DNA of 64,000 bases from Spirochaetota bacterium. Its GTDB lineage: Bacteria; Spirochaetota; UBA4802; JAFGDQ01. Location of the stretch: the NCBI GenBank assembly GCA_043803405.1, contig JAZDKB010000015.1, forward strand, positions 1 through 64,000, read 5' to 3'. Each line of letters starts with the position of its first letter. The stretch's first letter is position 1. Below the pieces are notes generated by a model. The model did no database searches and was not told the DNA's origin. It saw only the letters and a program-made list of their open reading frames with translations. A program made the position numbers and the translations under genes. Shown here one piece after another: positions 16,685-30,312 of the stretch.

Positions 16685-17299
16685 ATGGAAAAAAATATAT
16701 TGCATGCCATTGTATTTATTCAAAACTGGGGTGAGGAAAGTATAATTTTAAATTTTCTTAAACAAAATACTCACGTAATTTCAATTTTTCATATTATGGG
16801 AAGGCACAGTTATTTAATCGATTCCAATTTCGACAATAAATCCCAGCTAGAAGAATGGATATCTCAGGTTAAATCGCTTAAACTGTCATCCGGTATGCCT
16901 GCTGTTATATCACTCCAGACTCAGAAAGTAATCGAAGTATTAAAACAGAAAGAAGCCTTCGGACTAAAAGATTATAAAAACATTAAAGAATATTATCATT
17001 TCTTTATGCTTATTGATAATCCTCATCATGACGAAGGGCTGATCAAGTTATTGAAAAGTCAAGAGACAGTGCATTCTATTCTGCATACCCAGGGCAGGAA
17101 TTCATTTATAGTTGAAGTAATTACTGAATCGTACGACGATTATAAAAATTTTCTTTCAGAGATGAAAAAGCTGGAGACTATTCACCATATTGAGACCCTT
17201 GAAGTTATTCTGGTAAACAAATACAGAAACCAGGTAATGGACTCCGGCGGCAACCTTGTCTATCCCAAAAAGGATATCCGGGAATTATACACTTTGTAA
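16685..17299 (+). CDS. Protein with tandem Lrp/AsnC ligand-binding (RAM)-like domains, no HTH
   Basis: Two repeats: VISIFHIMGRHSYLI..SLQTQKVI and VHSILHTQGRNSFIV..HIETLEVI. Confidence 0.6.
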   Translation: MEKNILHAIVFIQNWGEESIILNFLKQNTHVISIFHIMGRHSYLIDSNFDNKSQLEEWISQVKSLKLSSGMPAVISLQTQKVIEVLKQKEAFGLKDYKNIKEYYHFFMLIDNPHHDEGLIKLLKSQETVHSILHTQGRNSFIVEVITESYDDYKNFLSEMKKLETIHHIETLEVILVNKYRNQVMDSGGNLVYPKKDIRELYTL

Positions 17300-17489
17300 T
17301 CAACCGGAATAAAAGCAATTAATCAGGATTATTGATTTAAAGGAATGAGTTAAAGCGTAACGCCTTGCAGTAAAAATTATTTGACATTATACCTTTTATC
17401 TTCTTAATGGCAGGCAGTTATAAAAATATCATTAGAAATTTTGCAAGAATCAATTGAAATAGAAATCATTTAAAAATAAAATATTGTCC

Positions 17490-17591
17490 ATGATAAGAAA
17501 TAACAACATATTAATCAGTTTGCATTGAGGAACATTCCGGGAGCCCGTGCGGCATCCCTTAATATTTCCAACCGCCTTACTCACGCCTTAA
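17490..17591 (+). CDS. Putative selenocysteine-containing leader peptide MIRNNNILISLH-U-GTFREPVRHPLIFPTALLTP
   Basis: In-frame TGA at 17526-17528 followed by SECIS-like hairpin; read-through ends at TAA 17589-17591 just before a terminator; no clear SD. Confidence 0.55.
17529..17569 (+). promoter_or_regulatory. Bacterial SECIS-like hairpin
   Basis: Upper stem GGGA-GCC/GGC-A-UCCC starts at the 11th nt after UGA; apical loop CGUGC (GU at positions 2-3) begins after a 17-nt spacer; lower stem GGAACAUU/AAUAUUUCC. Confidence 0.6.
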
Positions 17592-17614
17592 TTACTCAGC
17601 AAGCCTCCTGAGAA

Positions 17615-17645
17615 CCGGGCGCCATGAAAGGCGGCCGGATTTTTT
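17615..17645 (+). terminator. Leader (attenuator) terminator ahead of the DCCP/nif-like operon
   Basis: CCGG-G-CGCC[ATGAAA]GGCG-G-CCGG then ATTTTTT, 20 nt before first start codon. Confidence 0.65.
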
Positions 17646-17665
17646 ATATCTTAAGGAGGTTTTAA

Positions 17666-18943
17666 ATGTCAGATTATCAACAAATGTGGTCGGATTTAGG
17701 CCTTGATTTAAAAGGCCATGATGCACTTCTCTCTGTCCTGAGTGGAGCATACCAGGATATTTTTCTTTCTCAGAAGAATCGCCCCGAGGGAATGAAATAT
17801 TTCGACTTCGTTATGAGCGAAGTGCACGGCCTTCGGATAAAGGAATTAATGGACGCGAAGGCCAAAGGCAGAATAATCGTCGGGTCATACTGCGTATTTG
17901 TTCCCGAAGAGCTCATTCTGGCGGTTGACGGCATTTCAGTCGGTCTGTGCGCAGGAGCTGAATTCAACTTTTCCGGTGCGGAAGAAGTTATCCCGAGAAA
18001 CATCTGTTCCCTCATCAAATCCGCCTTCGGTTTTAAACTAGGAAAAGTGTGCCCTTACCTGGAAGCAAGCGACATTGTCGTTGGCGAGAACACTTGCGAC
18101 GGCAAAAAAAAATCGTATGAAATACTCGCTCCGCTTGTCAATGATCTGTATATTATGGATTTGCCGCAGATGAAAAGCAAAGCCGGTAAAACTCTGCTTA
18201 AACAGGAATACAACAAATTTATCAAAAAACTTGAAAAAACAAGCCAGAAAAAAATAACTACTCAATCGCTTAAAAAGGGAATAAAAATAGTAAACGCGAA
18301 ACGAAAGGCCGTGAAGCGTCTTGCCGACTTACGCAAAGCCGACCCTGCTCCGATATCCGGGCTTGACGCCCTGCTTATAAATCAGGTATTCTTCTATGAC
18401 GATCCCATACGATTTACGGATTCAGTCAATAAACTGTGCGACGAACTGGAAGATCGCGTGAAAAAAGGAATAGGCGTTTTTGAAAAAAATACATCCCGCG
18501 TAATAGTATCTGGCTGCCCTATGGCTGTTCCCAACTGGAAAGTACCAGCTCTTATTGAATCAAGCAACGCAGTAATTGTGGGAGAAGAATCCTGCGTTGG
18601 GGAACGCGGAGCCAGATGGCTTACTGACGAAAAAGGCAATAACATAAAGACATTTGTTGATAACATTACAGATCGTTATTTTGATATTGATTGTGCTGTT
18701 TTTACACCCAATCCTTCCCGTGTGGAATACGTAAAGGAAATGGCAAAAAAATTAAATGCAAACGGGGTTATTCATTACAGCCTGCAATTCTGCCATCCTT
18801 ATATTATAGAAAGCAGTCCTGCTGAAAAGGAGCTGGAGAAAACTGGCATACCCACATTGCGTCTGGAGACCGATTACAGCCAGGAGGACGCGGGACAGCT
18901 AAAGACCCGCATTGATGCTTTCGTGGAGCGGATTAAAGGTTAA
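17666..18943 (+). CDS. Double-cubane cluster protein (2-hydroxyacyl-CoA dehydratase/HgdB family), DCCP-like
   Basis: YCVFVPEE, NICSLIKS, CPY, ENTCDGKKK, ESC, IDCAVFTPN, FCHPY, ETDYS; N-terminal extension resembles characterised DCCP (from memory). Confidence 0.88.
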   Translation: MSDYQQMWSDLGLDLKGHDALLSVLSGAYQDIFLSQKNRPEGMKYFDFVMSEVHGLRIKELMDAKAKGRIIVGSYCVFVPEELILAVDGISVGLCAGAEFNFSGAEEVIPRNICSLIKSAFGFKLGKVCPYLEASDIVVGENTCDGKKKSYEILAPLVNDLYIMDLPQMKSKAGKTLLKQEYNKFIKKLEKTSQKKITTQSLKKGIKIVNAKRKAVKRLADLRKADPAPISGLDALLINQVFFYDDPIRFTDSVNKLCDELEDRVKKGIGVFEKNTSRVIVSGCPMAVPNWKVPALIESSNAVIVGEESCVGERGARWLTDEKGNNIKTFVDNITDRYFDIDCAVFTPNPSRVEYVKEMAKKLNANGVIHYSLQFCHPYIIESSPAEKELEKTGIPTLRLETDYSQEDAGQLKTRIDAFVERIKG

Positions 18944-19707
18944 TGAGATCCGCGGGAATCGACATAGGATCGCGAACAGTAAAGCTTGCTGTGCTTGAAG
19001 ATGGCAGACTTGTGCTCAGCCGCAAGTCAGTCACATCGCATAATCCTCTTGCCACTGCAAGAGAGCTTATGCGTGATGCAGAATATGACGCAATTACAGC
19101 TACAGGCTACGGCAGGCATCTTATTAAATCGAACTTCGACTGCATGGTAATAAGCGAAATCAAGGCTTTTGCTCTTGGCGCACGCTCGCTTTCCCTGGGA
19201 TGCAGGGCTATTCTTGACATAGGCGGCCAGGATACAAAGGCTGTGGCTCTTGATGAGCACGGCAATCTAAGCAAATTCGAAATGAACGATAAATGTGCAG
19301 CTGGCACCGGACGCTTTCTCGAGATCATGGCTACAGCCCTGGGTTACACGCTGGAAGATTTTTCAAGAGCGGCAATGTCAGCTGACCGTGCTGAGAAGAT
19401 AAACAGCACATGCACGGTTTTTGCGGAATCTGAAGTTATATCTTTGATAAATCAAGGTACAGGACGAAACGAAGTAGCGCTTGGAATTCACAAGTCTATT
19501 ATAAGCAGGGCTGTGTCGATACTAAAACGCGTATCTTTAAACGGAGATATTTTTTTTGCCGGCGGTGTAGCGCTGAATGAATGCGCGCGCGGACTCCTCG
19601 CAATCGAGACCGGCAGGGAGATAATAGTGCCCGACGATCCGCAGATAGTGGGTGCAATTGGAGCTGCGATCTATGCGGGGAGTAAAATGAGCCTAAAGCA
19701 AACATAA
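18943..19707 (+). CDS. ATP-dependent [4Fe-4S] activator (HgdC/BcrD/DCCP-R family)
   Basis: GIDIGSRT, TGYGR, DIGGQDTK, MNDKCAAGTGRFLE, CTVFAESE; TAATG coupling. Confidence 0.95.
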   Translation: MRSAGIDIGSRTVKLAVLEDGRLVLSRKSVTSHNPLATARELMRDAEYDAITATGYGRHLIKSNFDCMVISEIKAFALGARSLSLGCRAILDIGGQDTKAVALDEHGNLSKFEMNDKCAAGTGRFLEIMATALGYTLEDFSRAAMSADRAEKINSTCTVFAESEVISLINQGTGRNEVALGIHKSIISRAVSILKRVSLNGDIFFAGGVALNECARGLLAIETGREIIVPDDPQIVGAIGAAIYAGSKMSLKQT

Positions 19708-19779
19708 GGAAAACCTAAAACATGTTAAAGTTTCAGCCTGAAGGTATAAATTTTTTTAAACTTTTAAGGAGATTGTAAA

Positions 19780-20751
19780 TTGATCCACATATCGAAGCTG
19801 GAAAAATCTTTTAATAACCTTAAAGTGTTAAAAAATATAAACCTTCATATTCAGAAAGGGGATATATACGGGCTTATAGGCAGAAGCGGTGCCGGCAAGT
19901 CTACACTTTTAAGATGCATAAATGGTCTTGAAACATACGACTCAGGAACGTTAAAAATCGACGGATTCGAGGTAAAAAGCCATAATGATAAGGAAATCAG
20001 AGAATTCAGAAAAAATATCGGAATGATATTTCAGGACTTTTCACTTATGCAGAGAAAAACAGTATATGAAAACATTGCTCTACCAATGAAATGCTGGGGA
20101 TATAAAAAGGATATAATAGATCAAAGAGTAAAGGAATTGGTTGGAATAGTTGATATTCCGGAGAAGGTTAATGAAAAACCAAAAGCTTTAAGCGGAGGTC
20201 AGCAACAGAGAGTTGCAATAGCAAGGGCGCTTTCGCTGAACCCTAAAATTCTTCTTTGCGATGAAGCCACATCCGCTTTGGATCCAAAGACAACAAAATC
20301 CATATTGTCACTGCTAAGAAATATCAATGAGAAATTCGGGATCACTATAGTAATAGTAACTCATTCAATGTCAGTAATCAGGCAAATCTGCAACAAGGTT
20401 TCGGTTTTAGATAAAGGTGAAATAGAAACAAAAGGAGATGTCGAAAAAATTTTTTTGCATCAACCGCAATCTTTGAAAGACCTACTGGGCGAAGACGACG
20501 AGGACGTGCTGCCAAGTACGGGTATAAATATAAGATTGATATACTTAAAGAATGACATGGCGAGCGGTATTATTTCCAGGATGGCAAGAAAACTGGATAT
20601 AGACTTCTCCATAGTCTGGGGAAAACTTGAAAAATACAGAGACGATGTTTTGGGTTCTCTGGTAATAAATACAGAATTAAAAAATGAAAAATTAGTAACA
20701 AATTACTTAAACGAAATAAAGGTCAAGCACGAGGTTGTAAAAAATGGATAG
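19780..20751 (+). CDS. metN: Methionine-type ABC transporter ATP-binding subunit with NIL-like C-terminus
   Basis: GRSGAGKSTLLRCINGLE, LSGGQQQRVAIARAL, CDEATSALDPKTT. Confidence 0.9.
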   Translation: MIHISKLEKSFNNLKVLKNINLHIQKGDIYGLIGRSGAGKSTLLRCINGLETYDSGTLKIDGFEVKSHNDKEIREFRKNIGMIFQDFSLMQRKTVYENIALPMKCWGYKKDIIDQRVKELVGIVDIPEKVNEKPKALSGGQQQRVAIARALSLNPKILLCDEATSALDPKTTKSILSLLRNINEKFGITIVIVTHSMSVIRQICNKVSVLDKGEIETKGDVEKIFLHQPQSLKDLLGEDDEDVLPSTGINIRLIYLKNDMASGIISRMARKLDIDFSIVWGKLEKYRDDVLGSLVINTELKNEKLVTNYLNEIKVKHEVVKNG

Positions 20752-21403
20752 GGATTCTTTAGAACTTCTAAGTAAAATAGTAATTCCGGAATTAGGTATA
20801 ACAATGTACATGGTTTTGGTATCAACAGTGTTAGCAACCATTTTTGGTTTTATTCTTGCGATAACATTAATTATAACGAATCACGATGGGCTAAAACCAA
20901 ACCGATTCATCTATCAATCATTGGATGCTGTAATAAATATATTAAGGTCATTTCCATTTATTATATTAGTAGTCGCGATTATACCGTTCACAAGATACAT
21001 AATAGGAACATCAATAGGAGAAGAAGCAGCCATGGTACCGCTAGTAATAGCAGGATCACCATTTATAGCAAGACTGATTGAAGGAAGCTTAAAAGAAGTG
21101 GATAAGGGACTTATTGAAGCCGCAAAATCATTCGGGGCATCTAACACACAAATTGTGTTCAAGATAATGATCAAGGAATCAATACCTTCCATAACTTCCG
21201 GCATAACGCTTGCCATAGTATCGATACTGGGCGCCACAGCAATGGCAGGCGCGGTTGGCGGAGGAGGATTGGGATCTGTGGCTCTTTCCTACGGATATCA
21301 AAGCTTTAATGACACTATCATGTACGGCATTGTAGTCATCCTGATTATAGTAGTCCAAGTTATTCAAACTTTAGGAAATATATTATATAAAAAATTAAAG
21401 TAA
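20744..21403 (+). CDS. metI: Methionine-type ABC transporter permease
   Basis: RSFPFIIL..IPFTR..GTSIG, EAA motif, MAGAVGGGGLG. Confidence 0.92.
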   Translation: MDRDSLELLSKIVIPELGITMYMVLVSTVLATIFGFILAITLIITNHDGLKPNRFIYQSLDAVINILRSFPFIILVVAIIPFTRYIIGTSIGEEAAMVPLVIAGSPFIARLIEGSLKEVDKGLIEAAKSFGASNTQIVFKIMIKESIPSITSGITLAIVSILGATAMAGAVGGGGLGSVALSYGYQSFNDTIMYGIVVILIIVVQVIQTLGNILYKKLK

Positions 21404-21446
21404 TAAATATTACTTAATAAATAAAAAAATTAAGGAGAGATGTAAT

Positions 21447-22265
21447 ATGAAGTTTAAAAGTATTTTTTATTTCTCGCTGATGTCAGTTTTCCTAATATCA
21501 GCAACTGGTTATTCAGCACCAAAATATTCTACAGACGGCAAAAGAATAATCAGGGTAGCTACATCAAATGTTGAGCATGAAAAAACACTGCTCGCGGCAA
21601 AAGAAGAATTTGAGAAAAGCGGGTATAAGCTGGAAATAAAAGTGTTCAATGATTACACAGCGCCGAATATGGCAGTAGTCGAAGGGAGTATGGATGCAAA
21701 TTATTTCCAGCATGAACCTTTCCTGAAATTATTTAACCATTCAAAAGGCACTAACCTTGAATGCGGAAGGCCATTATACCTGATCACCACAGGAATATTT
21801 TCAAACAAAATCAAAAGCATGAAGGAACTCAAGGATGGAGCAAAAGTGGCTATCTTTAATGATAATTCGAATCGTGATTTTGCTTTGAGATTTTTACAAC
21901 ATCTAGGCCTGATCAAACTTAAAAAAGGCCTAAAAATTGCCACAAAGCTGGATATTGTAGAGAATAAAAGAAATTTAAAATTCATAGAGATGGATGGATT
22001 TAATATCGTCAATATGATGGACGAAGTGGATATTGCCGTCATGGCTGCCTCGCATATGGCGCAGGCCGGTAAAAATCCTAAAAGTGGAATAGCTTATTAT
22101 AATGACGCGAAAGGAGACGATGTGCGTGCTCTTGTATTAACAGTAAGAAATGGGGATATGAAAACAGACTGGGCTAAGGCATTAGAGAAAGCATTAATGT
22201 CAATAAAAGCACAGAAAGTTGTAGAAGAAACCTCTAAGGGAGCCAGAATCCCGGCATTTAAATAA
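21447..22265 (+). CDS. metQ: MetQ/NlpA family substrate-binding protein (divergent)
   Basis: FNDYTAPN, DANYFQHEPFL, NDNSN, DIVENKRNLKF. Confidence 0.85.
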   Translation: MKFKSIFYFSLMSVFLISATGYSAPKYSTDGKRIIRVATSNVEHEKTLLAAKEEFEKSGYKLEIKVFNDYTAPNMAVVEGSMDANYFQHEPFLKLFNHSKGTNLECGRPLYLITTGIFSNKIKSMKELKDGAKVAIFNDNSNRDFALRFLQHLGLIKLKKGLKIATKLDIVENKRNLKFIEMDGFNIVNMMDEVDIAVMAASHMAQAGKNPKSGIAYYNDAKGDDVRALVLTVRNGDMKTDWAKALEKALMSIKAQKVVEETSKGARIPAFK

Positions 22266-22300
22266 ATAATAAATTTAGATCAATTATTATAAAAAATTCA

Positions 22301-22332
22301 ACCTGGTAGTTTAATCAGCATAACTACCAGGT
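22301..22332 (+). other. Intra-operon stem-loop without U-tract
   Basis: Perfect 11-bp IR ACCTGGTAGTT/AACTACCAGGT between metQ and nifB-like gene. Confidence 0.7.
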
Positions 22333-22354
22333 CCCCTTAGAGGTTTGTTTCATA

Positions 22355-23278
22355 ATGACAGATAAATTCAGTCATCTGGTAAAACGACACCCGTGTTACA
22401 GTGGAGAGGCACATGTTAAATATGGGAGGGTACATTTGCCCGTAAGCCCGGTATGTAATATCCAGTGCAAATTCTGCAAGAGAAGTTTTAATAAATACGA
22501 AAACAGACCGGGAGTCAGCAGATCAATAATAACGCCTGAAGAAGCAATTGAACTAGTGAGCAAAGCTATGGTTTTGTGCCCCGACATCACAGTAGCAGGC
22601 ATAGCAGGCCCAGGCGATCCTTTAGCTTCAGACCATGCGCTTGATACATTCAGGCTAATAAATAAAAAATATCCTCATTTAATTAAGTGTTTAAGTACAA
22701 ATGGCTTTAGACTCAGTGAAAAAGCAGAACAAATAATGGAAGCAGGAGTAAAGACCATAACCGTAACCGTAAACGCAATTAAACCGGAAATATTAAAAAA
22801 TATATGCTCATGTATAATATTTAAAGGAAAAATAATTAAAGGCAAAGAGGGAGCTGAGGTGCTTATTGCTCATCAGTTAGAAGGAATTAAAAAAATTACA
22901 GAACTGGGCGCTATAGTAAAGATAAACACTGTACTGGTTCCGGGGATAAATGACAATCACATAGAGAAAATAGCTATAACGGCAAAGGAATTAGGCGCAT
23001 TTATAATTAATGTAATTCCCCTTATCCCCCAACATGAAATGATACACCTGCCCTCGCCTACCTGCGATCAATTGAAATTAGCCAGAGACAGCGCCGAAAA
23101 ACATTTAGCTGTATTCAGGCACTGCAAACAATGCAGGGCAGACGCGTGCGGAGTGCCTGGCAAAGGCATGGACATATCGGATTTATTATATGATAAACAA
23201 TTACAATTTGAAAGCAATTTGTCCTTCGGAATTGACAATGCAAACATATTAGATCACAGGCATATACTCTACCAGTAA
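22355..23278 (+). CDS. nifB: NifB/MarB-like radical SAM cofactor biosynthesis protein (no NifX domain)
   Basis: HPC, CNIQCKFC, ENRPG, AGPG, TVTVN, CKQCRADACG. Confidence 0.92.
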   Translation: MTDKFSHLVKRHPCYSGEAHVKYGRVHLPVSPVCNIQCKFCKRSFNKYENRPGVSRSIITPEEAIELVSKAMVLCPDITVAGIAGPGDPLASDHALDTFRLINKKYPHLIKCLSTNGFRLSEKAEQIMEAGVKTITVTVNAIKPEILKNICSCIIFKGKIIKGKEGAEVLIAHQLEGIKKITELGAIVKINTVLVPGINDNHIEKIAITAKELGAFIINVIPLIPQHEMIHLPSPTCDQLKLARDSAEKHLAVFRHCKQCRADACGVPGKGMDISDLLYDKQLQFESNLSFGIDNANILDHRHILYQ

Positions 23279-23286
23279 ACTAATAA

Positions 23287-25639
<2,353 letters not shown>

Positions 25640-25652
<13 letters not shown>

Positions 25653-26965
25653 TAGAACAACCGAGATATTCCTGCGCATTAGGCGCGCAGCAAACAGTAC
25701 TTGCAATCCCTAAAGCAATACCCATTCTTCACAGCGGAGCGGGCTGCAGTTCAAAAATCCATTTTGCACTGGCATCCGGTTCAGGGAATCAGGGAGAAGG
25801 ATATGCGGGAGGAAGCCATATACCGTGCACAAACTCTGCCGAGAAAGAAGTCATTTACGGAGGGGAAAAAAGATTGGATGAAACGATTTCCGGCAGCTTA
25901 AAGGTAATGAAAGGAGATCTGTTTGTGGTTTTGACCGGCTGCACGGCTGACATTGTCGGTGACGACGCCGGGGCAGTGACTTCAAAATACAGAGAAGAAG
26001 GATATCCAATAGTAAGCGCCGAGACGGGAGGCTTTAAAGGAAATAATTATTTCGGCCATGAATTGGTTATTCAAGCCATAATAAACCAATTAATCGGAGA
26101 TGTCGAACCAAGAGTAAAGAAAGGACTTGTTAATCTGTTTTCGGTTGTTCCGTATCAAAATCAAAACTGGAGAGGCGACCTACAGGAGATCAAATACCTA
26201 TTAAATCTAATAGGCCTTGAAGTAAATATTTTATTCGGATATGAATGCGAAGGTATAAGTGAGTGGAAGAACATCCCTAATGCAGAATTTAATCTTGTAC
26301 TGTCTCCATGGGTAGGATTGGAGACTGCCATATTGCTTAAAAAAAAGCACAACACACCTTATCTGCATTATCCATTAATTCCGGTAGGAGCTGAGGCAAC
26401 AAGCAGTTTTTTAAAAGCAGTTGGCGAATTCGCCGGCATTGATCCTAAAAAAATTGAAACCGTAATCCGCAAAGAAGAAGAAAGATATTATAAATATTTT
26501 ATCGGGGTAGCGGATTTCTTCACGGAAATCAGGATGATATTGCCTTATGAACTGTATACAATATCAGATTCAGCATACGCGATCGGAGCAAGCAGCTTTT
26601 TAATTAATGAAATGGGATACAGTCCAAAAAAGGCATTTATCACAGACAATGTTCCTGCAAAGTACCAGGGAATAGTAAGGCATGAATTCCAAAAAATAGA
26701 TGAAGCATACTCTGATAAAGTATTTTTTGAAGTCGATGGAGGAGAAATAGAAAAGACAATCAGGAACGATGAGAATATCCCAAGAAAAACTTTAATATTA
26801 GGCAGCGAGTGGGAAAAACTCGTGGCAAAGGACATACAGGCGCCTTTAACTTATATAGGTTTTCCTGTTACAAACAGCCTATTTATAAATAGAACTTTTA
26901 TCGGATATAGCGGAGGGCTAAGGTTGATTGAAGATATTTATACAAATATTATCAGATACTATTAA
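25640..26965 (+). CDS. Nitrogenase-like component 1 beta subunit (group IV, MarK-like)
   Basis: PRYSCALG, HSGAGC, TGCTADIVGDD, TGGFKGN, GYSGGLRLIED. Confidence 0.88.
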
Positions 26966-27036
26966 GAAAGCATTTAGAAAGTGCATCAGTTTAATTTGGT
27001 TAACTTTCATATAAAAATAAAGGAGTTATTGAACAA

Positions 27037-28197
27037 ATGAATACACCCATCGAACCTTTAATAAAAGACCAGTTCGCGGGCGAACCGCCGACTAAAAGGC
27101 TTCTCGCGTTTCTTCAATCAAAGCGCGAACAGGGAAAAAAGATCGCGGGAGTTTACTGCGGCTACGCGCCAGTAGAACTGATACGTGCAATGGATGTAAT
27201 ACCGGCTACGCTCTGTGCGTTCTCAAATAATACAATAGAACCTGCGGAAGCGGTTTTGCCTGCAAACCTTTGCCCGCTTATAAAATCAAGCTATGGTTTC
27301 ATCATCACAGACACATGCCCGTTTTACGGCATATCTGATGTTGTTATAGGTGAAACTACATGCGACGGTAAAAAGAAAATGTTTGAATTAATAGCAGAAA
27401 AAAAACCGACGCACATAATGGATCTGCCTCAGCTTCCGGACGAGGAGGGAGCCATAGCAAACTGGACAGCCATGATACGCAGACTTCAGAAATTCCTCGA
27501 AAAATCTTTTAACATTAAAGCGGAAGATGGCAAAATAGAGGAAGCTATTAAAGATACAAACTTAAAAAACGCTCTCATGCGTAAAGTCTTCAGTTTTGCA
27601 GCGCTTGATCATTCGCTTATAAGCTGGAAAGAAATATATGACTTGAATTTTCTTAGCCTGTCAGCATCCGGTAAAGATATGGAGCCGATATTAAATGAAG
27701 CAATTAAAACTTTGGAAAGACGTAAAGCGTCCGGATACGCATATAAAGCCAACGGTGCGCCACGAATTATGGTTACAGGATGCCCGATAGCAGGAGATGC
27801 GCAGAAAGTATTTAATATTATTGAAGAAGCCGGAGGAGTTATAACGGTTCTCGACGCATGCTCGGGATTCAAGCCGTACATGTCCGATATTAACGAGAAT
27901 ACGGGAGATCCGGTAAAAGCCATCGCAGAGCGTTATTTGCAAATTCCATGCTCCTGTATGACCCCAAATGATCGCCGTCTTGCAGATACGAGCAGAATGA
28001 TAGACATGTTTAAACCAGACGCGGTAGTTGACGTTGTGCTGCAGGCATGCCATTCGTACAATATTGAATCCTATAAGGTCGAAAAGCACATACAGAATTC
28101 TCACAATCTGCCGTTCCTTAAAATAGTGACGGATTATTCACAGAGCGACGCGGGCCAGATACGCACGCGCATTGAAGCTTTACTGGAGTCATGTTAA
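27037..28197 (+). CDS. Second double-cubane cluster protein (YjiM/HgdB family)
   Basis: YCGYAP, LCAF, NLCPLIKSSYG, CPFY, ETTCDGKKKM, DACSG, PCSCMTPN, ACHSY. Confidence 0.9.
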   Translation: MNTPIEPLIKDQFAGEPPTKRLLAFLQSKREQGKKIAGVYCGYAPVELIRAMDVIPATLCAFSNNTIEPAEAVLPANLCPLIKSSYGFIITDTCPFYGISDVVIGETTCDGKKKMFELIAEKKPTHIMDLPQLPDEEGAIANWTAMIRRLQKFLEKSFNIKAEDGKIEEAIKDTNLKNALMRKVFSFAALDHSLISWKEIYDLNFLSLSASGKDMEPILNEAIKTLERRKASGYAYKANGAPRIMVTGCPIAGDAQKVFNIIEEAGGVITVLDACSGFKPYMSDINENTGDPVKAIAERYLQIPCSCMTPNDRRLADTSRMIDMFKPDAVVDVVLQACHSYNIESYKVEKHIQNSHNLPFLKIVTDYSQSDAGQIRTRIEALLESC

Positions 28198-28200
28198 ATT

Positions 28201-29373
28201 ATGGATATAATATATTTCGACAACGCAGCTACGTCATGGCCTAAGCCTGATTCGATGATAAAAGCTATGGTTGATTTTAACGCCAATGTAGGCGCAAATC
28301 CCGGACGTTCGGGGCACAGGCTTTCGATCGAAGCCGGCCGCGTAATCTTTAACGCGCGCGAAGCTGTTGCCTCGCTTATAGGAGCTGATGATCCTCTCTC
28401 GATAATTTTTACGCGAAACGCCACCGAAGCCATTAATACAATAGTCCGCGGGCTCTTTCGAAGCGGGGATCATGTAATCACGTCGGGTATGGAGCATAAT
28501 TCCGTAATGCGGCCTCTTCGTGCCATTGAACAGGAAGGTGTCGGATTAACTGTCGTAAAATGTTCCGGCGCAGGAGACATGTCTCCGGACGACGTTGCCG
28601 GCGCGATCAGAAAAAACACAAAAATGATTATCATGACTCATGCGTCAAACGTGACAGGCACCATTATGCCTGTCGTGGATGTTGCGAAGATCGCGCGCGA
28701 GCACGGCATCATCTTTTGCGTGGACGCAGCACAGACCGCTGGAAACGTGCCAATGAATGTAATTAAAGATAACATAGATATTCTTGTCTTTACAGGCCAC
28801 AAGTCGCTTTACGGCCCGCAGGGAACCGGCGGTTTTTATTTGCGAAAGGGACTTGAGAAGATGATTGATCCTCTTGAACGCGGGGGTACAGGCAGCCGGT
28901 CAGAGTATGAGGAGCACCCGGATTTTATGCCGGACAGGTACGAGTCCGGCACACCTAACACTATCGGCATAGCCGGTCTTGGAGCAGGCCTTTCGTATAT
29001 TTCAAACACTGGAATTGATAATATTCGTAAAAAAGAGGTTGCTCTTACAGAACATTTCATAAACGGCATTCGTTCGCTAAATGGAGTAACGATTTACGGG
29101 CACACAAATCCGGAGAAGCGTACGGCGATTGTTTCATTTAATATTGACGGACTTAGCCCGTCGGACATTGCTTTAAAGCTGGATGAACAGTACAATATTA
29201 TGTCAAGGCCAGGACTTCACTGTGCGCCGTCTGCTCACCGAACAATCGGGACATTTCCAGAGGGTACAGTACGGTTCAGTTTTGGTTTATTTACAACAGA
29301 AGATGAAATTGATTTTGCTGTAAAAGCTATTGATGCTATTTGCAGAGACAATAAAATGACCTCATCCCTCTAA
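28201..29373 (+). CDS. Cysteine desulfurase / selenocysteine lyase family (class V PLP)
   Basis: YFDNAATSWPKP, EHNS, DAAQTAG, TGHKSLYGPQGTG, RPGLHCAP. Confidence 0.92.
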   Translation: MDIIYFDNAATSWPKPDSMIKAMVDFNANVGANPGRSGHRLSIEAGRVIFNAREAVASLIGADDPLSIIFTRNATEAINTIVRGLFRSGDHVITSGMEHNSVMRPLRAIEQEGVGLTVVKCSGAGDMSPDDVAGAIRKNTKMIIMTHASNVTGTIMPVVDVAKIAREHGIIFCVDAAQTAGNVPMNVIKDNIDILVFTGHKSLYGPQGTGGFYLRKGLEKMIDPLERGGTGSRSEYEEHPDFMPDRYESGTPNTIGIAGLGAGLSYISNTGIDNIRKKEVALTEHFINGIRSLNGVTIYGHTNPEKRTAIVSFNIDGLSPSDIALKLDEQYNIMSRPGLHCAPSAHRTIGTFPEGTVRFSFGLFTTEDEIDFAVKAIDAICRDNKMTSSL

Positions 29374-29438
29374 TCCCTTCTGCCATCTCCTGTTTACCAG
29401 GGAAGATTAGAAAGAATATTAACAGAGGGATGAGGTCA
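29357..29438. repeat. Long stem-loop between desulfurase and yedF
   Basis: 15-bp perfect IR TGACCTCATCCCTCT / AGAGGGATGAGGTCA. Confidence 0.75.
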
Positions 29439-29476
29439 AAATTCAGAAGTTAACAATAATTTATCAGGAGGATTCT

Positions 29477-30082
29477 ATGTCCGAAATAATCAATGCAAAA
29501 GGACTAACCTGCCCTCAGCCTGTTATTTTAACAAAAAAAGCGCTGGATGTCAAGGAAGAAGTTACGGTTCTGGTCGACAACATAACTGCAGTTGAAAATA
29601 TAAAAAGGCTCGCTTCCAGCACCGGATGTTCTTTTCATGTATCAGGCGAGGCAGACGGGGTTTTTAAAATTCAACTTCATAAGCAACCAGGCGCGCAGCC
29701 CGATGCTTCAACCGATTATCTTTCATGCGATGCAGGCACTGCAGCAGGCCCGAATGTTTTTTTAATATCATCAAATACAATGGGCAGAGGGAACGATGAA
29801 CTTGGCGCTCTTCTTATGAAAGCTTTTATCCATACTTCTATAGAACTGGAAACAGTCCCCGATGTAATGATATTATTAAACACAGGGGTCAAGCTTGCCG
29901 TTCAGGGTTCGGATGTTATTGACGATCTTAAAACGCTTGAAGTTAAAGGGGTTCAGATACTGGTATGCGGCACATGCCTTAATTTTTTTAATCTTAAAGA
30001 TAAACTTGCGGCAGGAATCGTTTCAAATATGTATGACATCGCAGGCGCTCTTATAAAATCCGGTCGCATAGTTCAGCCATGA
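29477..30082 (+). CDS. yedF: Selenium metabolism protein YedF (TusA/SirA + DsrE domains)
   Basis: AKGLTCPQPV TusA motif; MGRGNDELG..LM, NTGV, CGTCL, SNMY. Confidence 0.9.
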   Translation: MSEIINAKGLTCPQPVILTKKALDVKEEVTVLVDNITAVENIKRLASSTGCSFHVSGEADGVFKIQLHKQPGAQPDASTDYLSCDAGTAAGPNVFLISSNTMGRGNDELGALLMKAFIHTSIELETVPDVMILLNTGVKLAVQGSDVIDDLKTLEVKGVQILVCGTCLNFFNLKDKLAAGIVSNMYDIAGALIKSGRIVQP

Positions 30083-30312
30083 ACGAAACACAAACGCAAT
30101 ACTGCATAGCTTTATTTAAATCCGTAAGTCATGTTCTTCATGCCGAGAAAATACTTAAAGAAGCGAACGTGCCTCACAAAATAATCCCTGTCCCTAAAAA
30201 AATAAGCTCGGAATGCGGGGTTTGCGTAAGGTTTCTGCCTGAGCATAGCGACGAAATAAGAAATACGCTTTACGGGAAAGTTGAGGAATTTGAGATACGG
30301 AAGTTACCCTAA
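30079..30312 (+). CDS. DUF3343 family putative Se/S carrier protein
   Basis: F.SVSHVLHAEK, IPVPKKISSECG; ATGA overlap with yedF. Confidence 0.85.
   Translation: MNETQTQYCIALFKSVSHVLHAEKILKEANVPHKIIPVPKKISSECGVCVRFLPEHSDEIRNTLYGKVEEFEIRKLP

Follow-up and report, generated by a model that had tools for sequence, protein, structure and literature searches.

In enteric bacteria, amino-acid operons are controlled by transcription attenuators with a leader peptide, namely trpL, hisL, pheL and thrL. Little has been described of the way in which selenium is sensed in bacteria and enzymes are switched between their selenocysteine (Sec) and cysteine (Cys) versions, the mechanisms found being a LysR-type regulator in methanogens and transcriptional polarity within one spirochaete fdhF. 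The latter was described for fdhF(Sec) of Treponema primitia, where, according to the available text of Matson et al. (2013; PMC3892789), transcription is coupled to translation and lack of selenium truncates the transcript. A synthetic attenuator responding to an unnatural amino acid was built by Liu et al. (2011), for which no equivalent in nature was on record according to the same text of 2013. In Methanococcus, HrsM/LysR_Se controls the genes of Cys isoforms, as given in the accessible portions of PMC5322559 and PMC11097638. The present analysis concerns a leader at positions 17490-17665 of a stretch of 64,000 nucleotides (nt) from a Spirochaetota bacterium (contig JAZDKB010000015.1, positions 1 to 64,000; referred to as the window). 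The leader is located 5' of an operon of 13 genes and is probably a ribosome-mediated attenuator that uses Sec insertion as its signal.

A preliminary description of the window had proposed Sec-sensing attenuation, with a UGA codon and a hairpin of the selenocysteine insertion sequence (SECIS) type in a leader peptide coupled to a terminator. This interpretation was supported by the comparative evidence and was refined by an inner helix and by a Shine-Dalgarno output. The coordinates given in that description were all borne out when the sequence of the window was checked. ATG17490 is present with TGA as the 13th codon (17526-17528), and reading through the TGA gives a frame of 33 codons with the stop codon TAA at 17589-17591; the encoded peptide would be MIRNNNILISLH-U-GTFREPVRHPLIFPTALLTP. 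The hairpin begins at the 11th nt past the TGA and consists of GGGAGCC (17539-45), the loop CGTGC (17546-50) and GGCATCCC (17551-58). Further downstream, CCGCCTT (17572-78) and CGCCTT (17584-89) are each complementary to AAGGCGG (17628-34), and a GC hairpin, CCGGGCGCC (17615-23)/GGCGGCCGG (17630-38), is followed by TTTTTT at 17640-45. A lower stem of the SECIS-like hairpin, GGAA/UUCC with AUU/AAU, was also predicted in the window copy, but only about 55-60% of its cells were paired in 26 homologues. All features are compiled in Table 1.

Three paralogous leaders were found with nhmmer on contig C39 of the same genome, giving four copies in total. All four show a start codon, 12-14 codons, TGA, 20 codons and a stop codon when open reading frames are listed with TGA as U. 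A covariance model built from nine leaders matched 24 of 122 genomes of the order to which the window belongs (36 matches), and five of 151 genomes in an even sample of the phylum, all five within the same order. A second class was reached via a named Syntrophus locus; there, 50 of 96 genomes were matched (85 matches), and the named loci were titled Syntrophus and Syntrophorhabdus. In named loci, the leader was located 5' of an HGD-D orthologue in Spirochaetota/Leptospirales metagenome-assembled genomes (MAGs), Syntrophus, Syntrophorhabdus, Syntrophaceae and 'delta proteobacterium' MAGs. The leader is evidently not a chance feature. Three sets of leaders were used, comprising 26 leaders for folds and frame statistics, 39 for the codons before the UGA and the start signals, and 57 for the TGA and a duplex test. 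Five weak model matches without the full architecture were excluded from all counts (L052, L046 and L047 lacking the TGA, L043 and L045 lacking a start). L044 (24 bits, GTG start, seven codons before the TGA) was excluded from the 26-leader sets and L053 from alignment A7 by an E-value cut; L114 and L131 were also excluded.

The in-frame TGA was kept in all 57 aligned leaders. Each of them consists of a start codon, 9-17 codons (some longer), TGA, 17-25 codons and a stop codon, and the number of codons after the UGA is exactly 20 in 51 leaders. An ATG at least seven codons 5' of the UGA was present in its frame in 25 of the 26 leaders, compared with 0/26 and 1/26 for the other two frames, and the frame remained open for at least 17 codons past the TGA in 26/26 leaders, compared with 9/26 and 15/26. 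The stop codon at the fixed site was TAA in 18, TGA in five and TAG in three leaders; this interchange fits a stop codon and not a pairing element. Directly before the UGA, the motif I-F-I-P-L-x was observed in the 39-leader set, which includes both phyla, with the amino acids being kept while third bases varied synonymously. Phe was kept in 27 leaders (TTT 18, TTC 9), Leu in 23 (TTA 16, TTG 7) and Pro in 20 (CCA 10, CCG 4, CCT 4, CCC 2). The motif is not universal, as the window copy has ILISLH and one genus has TRLCQ. An influence of this motif on stalling or release at the UGA is conceivable. Conservation in relatives of the small frame, the UGA and the hairpin had been named in the preliminary description as a check; all three were found to be conserved across two phyla, with variation of both the coding and the pairing type.

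This conservation bears on a different explanation, in which the UGA is an ordinary stop codon and the hairpin and folds belong to a riboswitch or protein-binding leader for another signal, e.g. a sulfur or selenium metabolite, with no decoding of Sec. Such a leader would be in agreement with an initial alignment of the four copies, in which the core was conserved and the expression platform was of the standard kind, and with the many members that have no Shine-Dalgarno sequence for the leader frame; also, a ligand-driven switch could use the same OFF and ON folds. However, a frame open past the UGA in 26/26 leaders and a fixed site at which TAA, TAG and TGA interchange would be needless for a pure RNA element, the hairpin has SECIS spacing and a GU loop, and the leader was found solely in SelB-bearing genomes. 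An Rfam scan of positions 17250-17750 at E up to 10 also yielded no family, the sole match being a meaningless one to a long non-coding RNA (16.5 bits). A switch without Sec decoding is thus regarded as very unlikely. Assignment to a riboswitch class with a metabolite aptamer had been tried and was rejected; no described aptamer family matched, conservation was frame-dependent and the frame was seen in all four copies.

The upper stem of the SECIS-like hairpin was the best-conserved element, with 95.5% of cells paired in the 26 leaders and with exchanges between G-C, G-U and A-U pairs. The loops CGUGC, GGUGC, CGUGU, CGUGA, AGGUU and UGUUU contain GU in every case, and the spacing of 11 nt between UGA and hairpin was constant across alignment A5. 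A conserved G or GU in the apical loop is the bacterial SECIS consensus derived from Escherichia coli fdhF and the bSECISearch literature. In the same genome, the hairpins after the Sec codons of the FdhA, HdrA and SelD genes start 11-14 nt past the UGA and have loops of 3-5 nt (GGUCU, AGGU), GGUCU being the SECIS loop of FdhA; the leader hairpin resembles them in its geometry. A spacing of approximately 11 nt, a continuing frame (17-25 codons), a GU loop and selA/selB/selC/selD in the genome, as looked for with a SECIS, were all found, and the hairpin is proposed to direct Sec insertion through SelB. The preliminary description had left the Sec machinery to be confirmed; tRNA-Sec, selA, selB and selD, the latter with an in-frame TGA, are all present in the genome and are clustered on another contig.

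The strong conservation of this hairpin would also be in agreement with an operator for SelB titration, at which SelB, either free or loaded, shifts the fold with no requirement for leader translation. A SECIS-like element in the E. coli selAB leader was reportedly described by Thanbichler and Bock in 2002, with SelB binding proposed to occur there without UGA decoding. An operator of this kind would not account for the invariance of the in-frame UGA, for the conservation of the start, for the fixed position of the stop or for the synonymous variation of the codons before the UGA, and the hairpin does not overlap the switching strands. SelB titration is likewise regarded as very unlikely, with a probability slightly below that of the riboswitch explanation.

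Two alternative folds were obtained. The OFF fold was derived with RNAalifold and stored with the covariance model, and the ON fold was obtained from folding with a ribosome placed at the UGA. In the OFF fold, the terminator hairpin (17615-38) is enclosed by a helix formed between CCUCCU (17604-09) and the Shine-Dalgarno sequence AGGAGG (17654-59), and this sequestration would be a second output beyond the one given in the preliminary description. In the ON fold, the leader tail pairs with both terminator arms and an apex hairpin, CUCAG/CUGAG, ties up the anti-Shine-Dalgarno sequence, which is located in its loop and 3' strand. The pairs of the tail in the window are CCGCCUU 17572-78/AAGGCGG 17628-34, UCA 17581-83/UGA 17625-27 and CGCCU 17584-88/GGGCG 17617-21. 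Its strands fall inside the last six leader codons, and it is terminator positions 17617-21 and 17625-34 that pair alternatively with them. The antiterminator CCGCCUU/AAGGCGG of the preliminary description thus corresponds to the outer helix, as part of a larger conserved ON structure. As CGCCU is also paired with the 5' arm of the terminator, the accompanying caveat of pairing with the 3' arm alone is resolved.

In the 26 leaders, 87.4% of the cells of the ON fold were paired, 14 of 22 pairs showed two-sided changes and none of 500 shuffles reached the score, while slid controls gave 38-55%. The corresponding values of the OFF fold were 87.5%, 15 of 22 pairs, 0/500 shuffles and 35-58%. Since the alignment had been fitted to the OFF fold alone, the covariation of the ON fold is not an artefact of fitting. 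Two-sided changes were observed in both the outer helix (81.6% of cells paired) and the inner helix (95.2%) of the ON fold, and in all five pairs of the small apical hairpin (ON helices 4 and 5; 68% and 86%). Of the OFF helices, the terminator (helix 3) was paired in 84.3% of cells, with two-sided changes in 7/10 pairs, and the Shine-Dalgarno helix (helix 2) in 84.8%, with such changes in 6/6 pairs. Covariants of the outer helix were CCGCCUU/AAGGCGG, CCGCUU/AAGCGG and CCAUCACC/GGUGGUGG. An alignment-free test of the duplex between tail and terminator gave a median of -20.9 kcal/mol in 57 leaders, with a median z of -2.2 against shuffled tails. The mean was -20.2 kcal/mol for own pairs and -17.0 kcal/mol for mismatched ones, and the own tail had a median rank of 8/57. 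The two folds are mutually exclusive and, judged by these pairing statistics, both are under selection.

The same statistics bear on whether the frame could encode a small selenoprotein with its own function, the terminator and the Shine-Dalgarno helix then being ordinary intergenic features. The peptide motif I-F-I-P-L-x before the Sec codon, with its synonymous variation, would be accounted for, but the N-terminal part is variable in both length and sequence, the residues conserved past the Sec codon are encoded within the RNA helices, and the tail pairs and covaries with its own terminator. In addition, copies are located before different operons together with remnants of the first codons of neighbouring genes, as a cis-acting module would be. 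A small selenoprotein is also regarded as very unlikely, its assigned probability being slightly lower again than that of SelB titration.

The genes behind the leaders point to selenium. HGD-D was the commonest of them, the others being YedE-like transporters, YedF, TusA, DUF3343, DUF169, class-V aminotransferase, rhodanese, ABC transporter/ABC ATPase, B12-binding protein, SelB and activase. Neighbours of genes in selenium loci are likewise HGD-D subunits, activase, DUF169, YedE, YedF, DUF3343 and Sec lyase, according to the available text on this point (Lin et al. 2015; PMC5322559). The selenium logic that had been read from the yedF, DUF3343 and desulfurase genes of the window extends to the regulon, which is selenium-related or consists of Cys-type copies of selenoproteins. 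Of the three other leaders of the genome, one is located ahead of a rhodanese lipoprotein, one ahead of a Cys-type FdhA and one ahead of a Cys-type HdrA with FlpD, and all leader-preceded FdhA (5/5) and HdrA (4/4) proteins were of the Cys type. The same genome also has a cluster of Sec-type FdhA, HdrA and FlpD on contig C4 (208375-218700). Its FdhA and HdrA are 73% and 71% identical to the copies on C39, with the TGA exactly at the aligned Cys, and no leader was found with the covariance model ahead of these Sec-type genes on C4. SelB was present in all 24 leader-bearing genomes of the order. A family without SelB (0/12) had no leader, and a complete SelB-less genome (G026) had kept the HGD-D orthologue, with the leader being absent.

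For the attenuator favoured here, we infer translation of the leader, insertion of Sec and the footprints of the ribosome. In 20/26 leaders, the outer strand starts 17 nt and the inner strand 5 nt ahead of the stop codon; the anti-Shine-Dalgarno sequence begins 9-15 nt past the stop in 23/26, and the 5' arm of the terminator 20-27 nt past it in 23/26. With the generally known size of the ribosome footprint, a ribosome whose A site holds the stop codon would mask every ON-specific 5' strand, and all OFF-specific strands would stay free. The short frame would be translated up to the invariant UGA, with the hairpin following 11 nt downstream. In selenium-replete cells, charged Sec-tRNA and SelB would allow the UGA to be read as Sec, and the ribosome would proceed 20 codons to the fixed stop, masking the tail (17572-17588) and CUCAG (17595-99). 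The terminator hairpin with its U-tract would then form, enclosed by the helix of the anti-Shine-Dalgarno and Shine-Dalgarno sequences, and the operon would be OFF. In selenium-starved cells, the ribosome would stop or be released at the UGA for lack of Sec, and the tail would be free. As the RNA emerged, the tail would zip first onto the 5' arm of the terminator and then onto its loop and 3' arm, while the CUCAG/CUGAG hairpin would hold the anti-Shine-Dalgarno sequence. Transcription would read through, the Shine-Dalgarno sequence would be open and the operon ON, so that genes for selenium uptake and salvage and the Cys versions of selenoenzymes would be switched on in starvation.

The polarity, with the operon OFF under selenium-replete conditions, would follow from the ribosome at the stop covering only ON-specific strands and from a regulon of backup enzymes and uptake/salvage genes. 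The reverse polarity, in which the same parts turn the operon ON upon Sec insertion, might be suggested by the near-isoenergetic equilibrium folds and by SelB behind one leader, but it is the least probable explanation of all, since a ribosome at the conserved stop covers ON-specific strands only and leaves all OFF-specific strands free, the controlled enzymes are of the Cys type while their Sec-type twins have no leader, and uptake/salvage genes are expected to be induced by starvation.

Several observations weigh against attenuation by Sec insertion. The start signals of the leader are weak, as a Shine-Dalgarno-like motif was present before the start in only 16/39 leaders and a TAnnnT box 5-10 nt before it in 6/39; the caveat of the preliminary description that the leader has no clear Shine-Dalgarno sequence stands, the window copy having none. 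Sec insertion is inefficient in E. coli, and this would limit the dynamic range. With the tail free, OFF was favoured at equilibrium in 16/26 leaders and ON in 10/26, the two folds being compared through pair probabilities because mis-registered terminator columns in some alignment rows made column-enforced energies unreliable; for the window copy, ON was 0.31 and OFF 0.69. As the equilibrium favours OFF in most leaders, the switch must be kinetic, acting during transcription like that of classic attenuators. When the transcript was cut just past the outer 3' strand, the probability of the ON helices was >0.5 in 20/26 leaders and 0.98 in the window copy. A U-tract follows the hairpin in only 17/26 leaders, and the output of members without it may be translational only, by Shine-Dalgarno sequestration. 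A simple terminator scan listed no terminator in 17000-18000 although the window hairpin is followed by U6; the internal G-G mismatch may explain why it was missed. SelB is found in 104/122 genomes of the order anyway and the genomes are related, so that the association between SelB and leader is statistically weak and only supportive. In addition, one leader (L153 on G328:C5) is followed approximately 350 nt 3' by a SelB gene with GTP_EFTU and SelB beta-barrel domains. This is in agreement with a selenium regulon and not specifically with one of selenium-free backup enzymes, and the Sec machinery itself may be under leader control in some genomes.

Table 1. Positions of the leader elements, the promoter-like site and the operon in the window
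Feature	Position	Strand	Basis
Promoter-like site, TTGAAA-17 nt-TAAAAT	17454-17482	+	Consensus scan; 4 sites found vs 3.2 expected
Leader reading frame: ATG, 12 codons, UGA, 20 codons, TAA	17490-17591	+	Sequence and homologues
UGA sensor codon, proposed Sec	17526-17528	+	Invariant in 57/57 leaders; Sec machinery in genome
SECIS-like hairpin: stem GGGAGCC/GGCAUCCC, one unpaired A, loop CGUGC	17539-17558	+	Folding and homologues
ON (antiterminator) 5' strands: CCGCCUU 17572-78, UCA 17581-83, CGCCU 17584-88	17572-17588	+	Pairing statistics
Small apical hairpin: CUCAG 17595-99/CUGAG 17608-12	17595-17612	+	Pairing statistics
Terminator-like hairpin: CCGGGCGCC/GGCGGCCGG, G-G mismatch, then UUUUUU	17615-17645	+	Folding and homologues
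Shine-Dalgarno sequence AGGAGG 17654-59 and ATG17666 of first operon gene	17654-17668	+	Folding and homologues
Controlled operon, 13 genes	17666-30312	+	Gene calls and domain assignments

The leader is located in a gap of 366 nt between an AsnC-type gene (16685-17299) and the operon, all on the same strand. The gene immediately 5' of the leader encodes a protein of 204 aa with an AsnC/Lrp ligand-binding domain. The -10-like box of the promoter-like site ends 7 nt 5' of ATG17490, and because of this short distance the small frame in the window might be leaderless or almost so. The common strand and tight spacing of the 13 genes indicate that they probably form a single transcription unit. They encode HGD-D, a BcrAD-type activase, a MetN/MetI/NlpA-like ABC transporter, a radical SAM enzyme, a NifH-like protein, two NifD/K-like proteins, a second HGD-D, a class-V aminotransferase of the Sec-lyase/cysteine-desulfurase type, YedF (TusA and DsrE) and Se_S_carrier (DUF3343). 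Between 19780 and 29373, a MetNIQ-like transporter, radical SAM, NifH/NifD/NifK-like proteins, two HGD-D with activase and a class-V aminotransferase occur together. This set resembles sulfur-salvage systems based on nitrogenase-like reductases, and the operon could be a pathway that salvages selenium from organic selenium compounds.

Two bolder readings are doubtful and are put forward only tentatively. In one, the nascent I-F-I-P-L-x would make the UGA a timed decision point; the motif, while inside the ribosome, would hold off release factor 2, and the ribosome would wait at the UGA for SelB. In the other, the operon, whose two HGD-D proteins are of the double-cubane type, would represent an unrecognised pathway for organic-selenium salvage in times of starvation.

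The HGD-D protein of the window is approximately 80% identical to Syntrophus and Smithella proteins. Together with the far higher frequency of the leader in the second class (50/96 compared with 5/151), this suggests transfer of the leader into the lineage of the window. The leader also appears to spread as a module along with the start of the adjoining gene, because remnants of the first codons of rhodanese or HGD-D are located between leaders and other genes. On C39, copies 2 and 3 show degenerate first codons of rhodanese (MLNN...) between the leader and fdhA or hdrA (L023, 5907-6058 and 9037-9150), with ATT as the start codon in copy 2, and these remnants are traces of leader duplication as a module. 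Behind several other leaders, the first 22-80 HGD-D codons are located, fused or truncated, ahead of a different gene.

Further variation was seen at individual loci. The leader-preceded HGD-D genes of L030 and L031 have each lost an internal part, so that residue ~22 is joined directly to ~236, and HGD-D remnants of 26 and ~66 codons are located ahead of a class-V aminotransferase in L032 and L038. In L040, HGD-D is intact except for an in-frame TAG at codon 82. In a record of the cultured Syntrophus buswellii (L065), the operon begins with another gene than the HGD-D orthologue, which has no leader immediately 5' of it, and a model search of the whole record gave just a partial match of 21 bits. 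Weak partial matches were also obtained in two Syntrophus records (L137 and L138; 1501-1579, minus strand; 26.5 and 21.1 bits). In each of them, a GAGAACC/GGUUCUC hairpin is located 11 nt past a UGA, which could represent either a diverged leader or an ordinary SECIS. HGD-D orthologues of the Smithella type (L058, L060, L064 and L074) have no leader; the conserved stretch TTCCTTTTATTCATTGGCG, common to them and located approximately 150-200 nt 5', might bind a protein in place of the leader.

If the proposed mechanism is true, the leader would report, directly and in a protein-free way, the capacity of the cell to insert the 21st amino acid, and it would define a selenium-starvation regulon from sequence alone. 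It would point to HGD-D with its activase, nitrogenase-like proteins, DUF169, YedE, YedF and DUF3343 as candidate genes of selenium uptake or salvage, and it would be a compact natural part for gene control responsive to selenium or recoding. The mutational predictions are clear and are testable in cultivable Syntrophus-type or sulfate-reducing bacteria. In the openly accessible full-text literature, no published description of a leader attenuator with a Sec codon was found.

Ribosome-mediated attenuation is already known, and what would be new is Sec recoding as the sensor. As in trpL-type attenuators, the leader is short, the position of the ribosome would select the antiterminator or the terminator, a ribosome at the leader stop would mask the 5' strand of the antiterminator, and the controlled genes would serve to supply the sensed amino acid. 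The sensor, however, would be one recoded stop codon dependent on SelB and a SECIS, whereas it is a run of sense codons read by ordinary tRNA in the trpL type, and failure of decoding would mean termination or stalling at a stop codon. Shine-Dalgarno sequestration as a second output and a regulon including selenium-free isoenzymes would be further differences. The element said to be present in E. coli selAB shares a SECIS-type hairpin in the 5' leader of a selenium-related operon, but here the in-frame UGA, the start and the fixed stop are conserved as well. In fdhF(Sec) of T. primitia, selenium supply is likewise read via UGA/SECIS decoding and relayed to transcription; its UGA is inside the selenoprotein gene itself, and the available text (PMC3892789) gives neither a dedicated leader nor alternative folds. 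HrsM/LysR_Se, as described in the accessible portions of its papers, shares with the mechanism proposed for the leader the repression of Cys versions of selenoenzymes when selenium is available, but is an archaeal DNA-binding protein, whereas a bacterial cis-acting device of RNA and ribosome is proposed here. A further related design is the synthetic attenuator of Liu, Qi, Yanofsky and Arkin (2011), as cited in the available text of PMC3892789, in which the choice between termination and read-through likewise depends on whether a stop codon within the leader peptide is recoded; that system was engineered with an orthogonal tRNA/synthetase pair, while SelB and a SECIS would serve this function in the leader.

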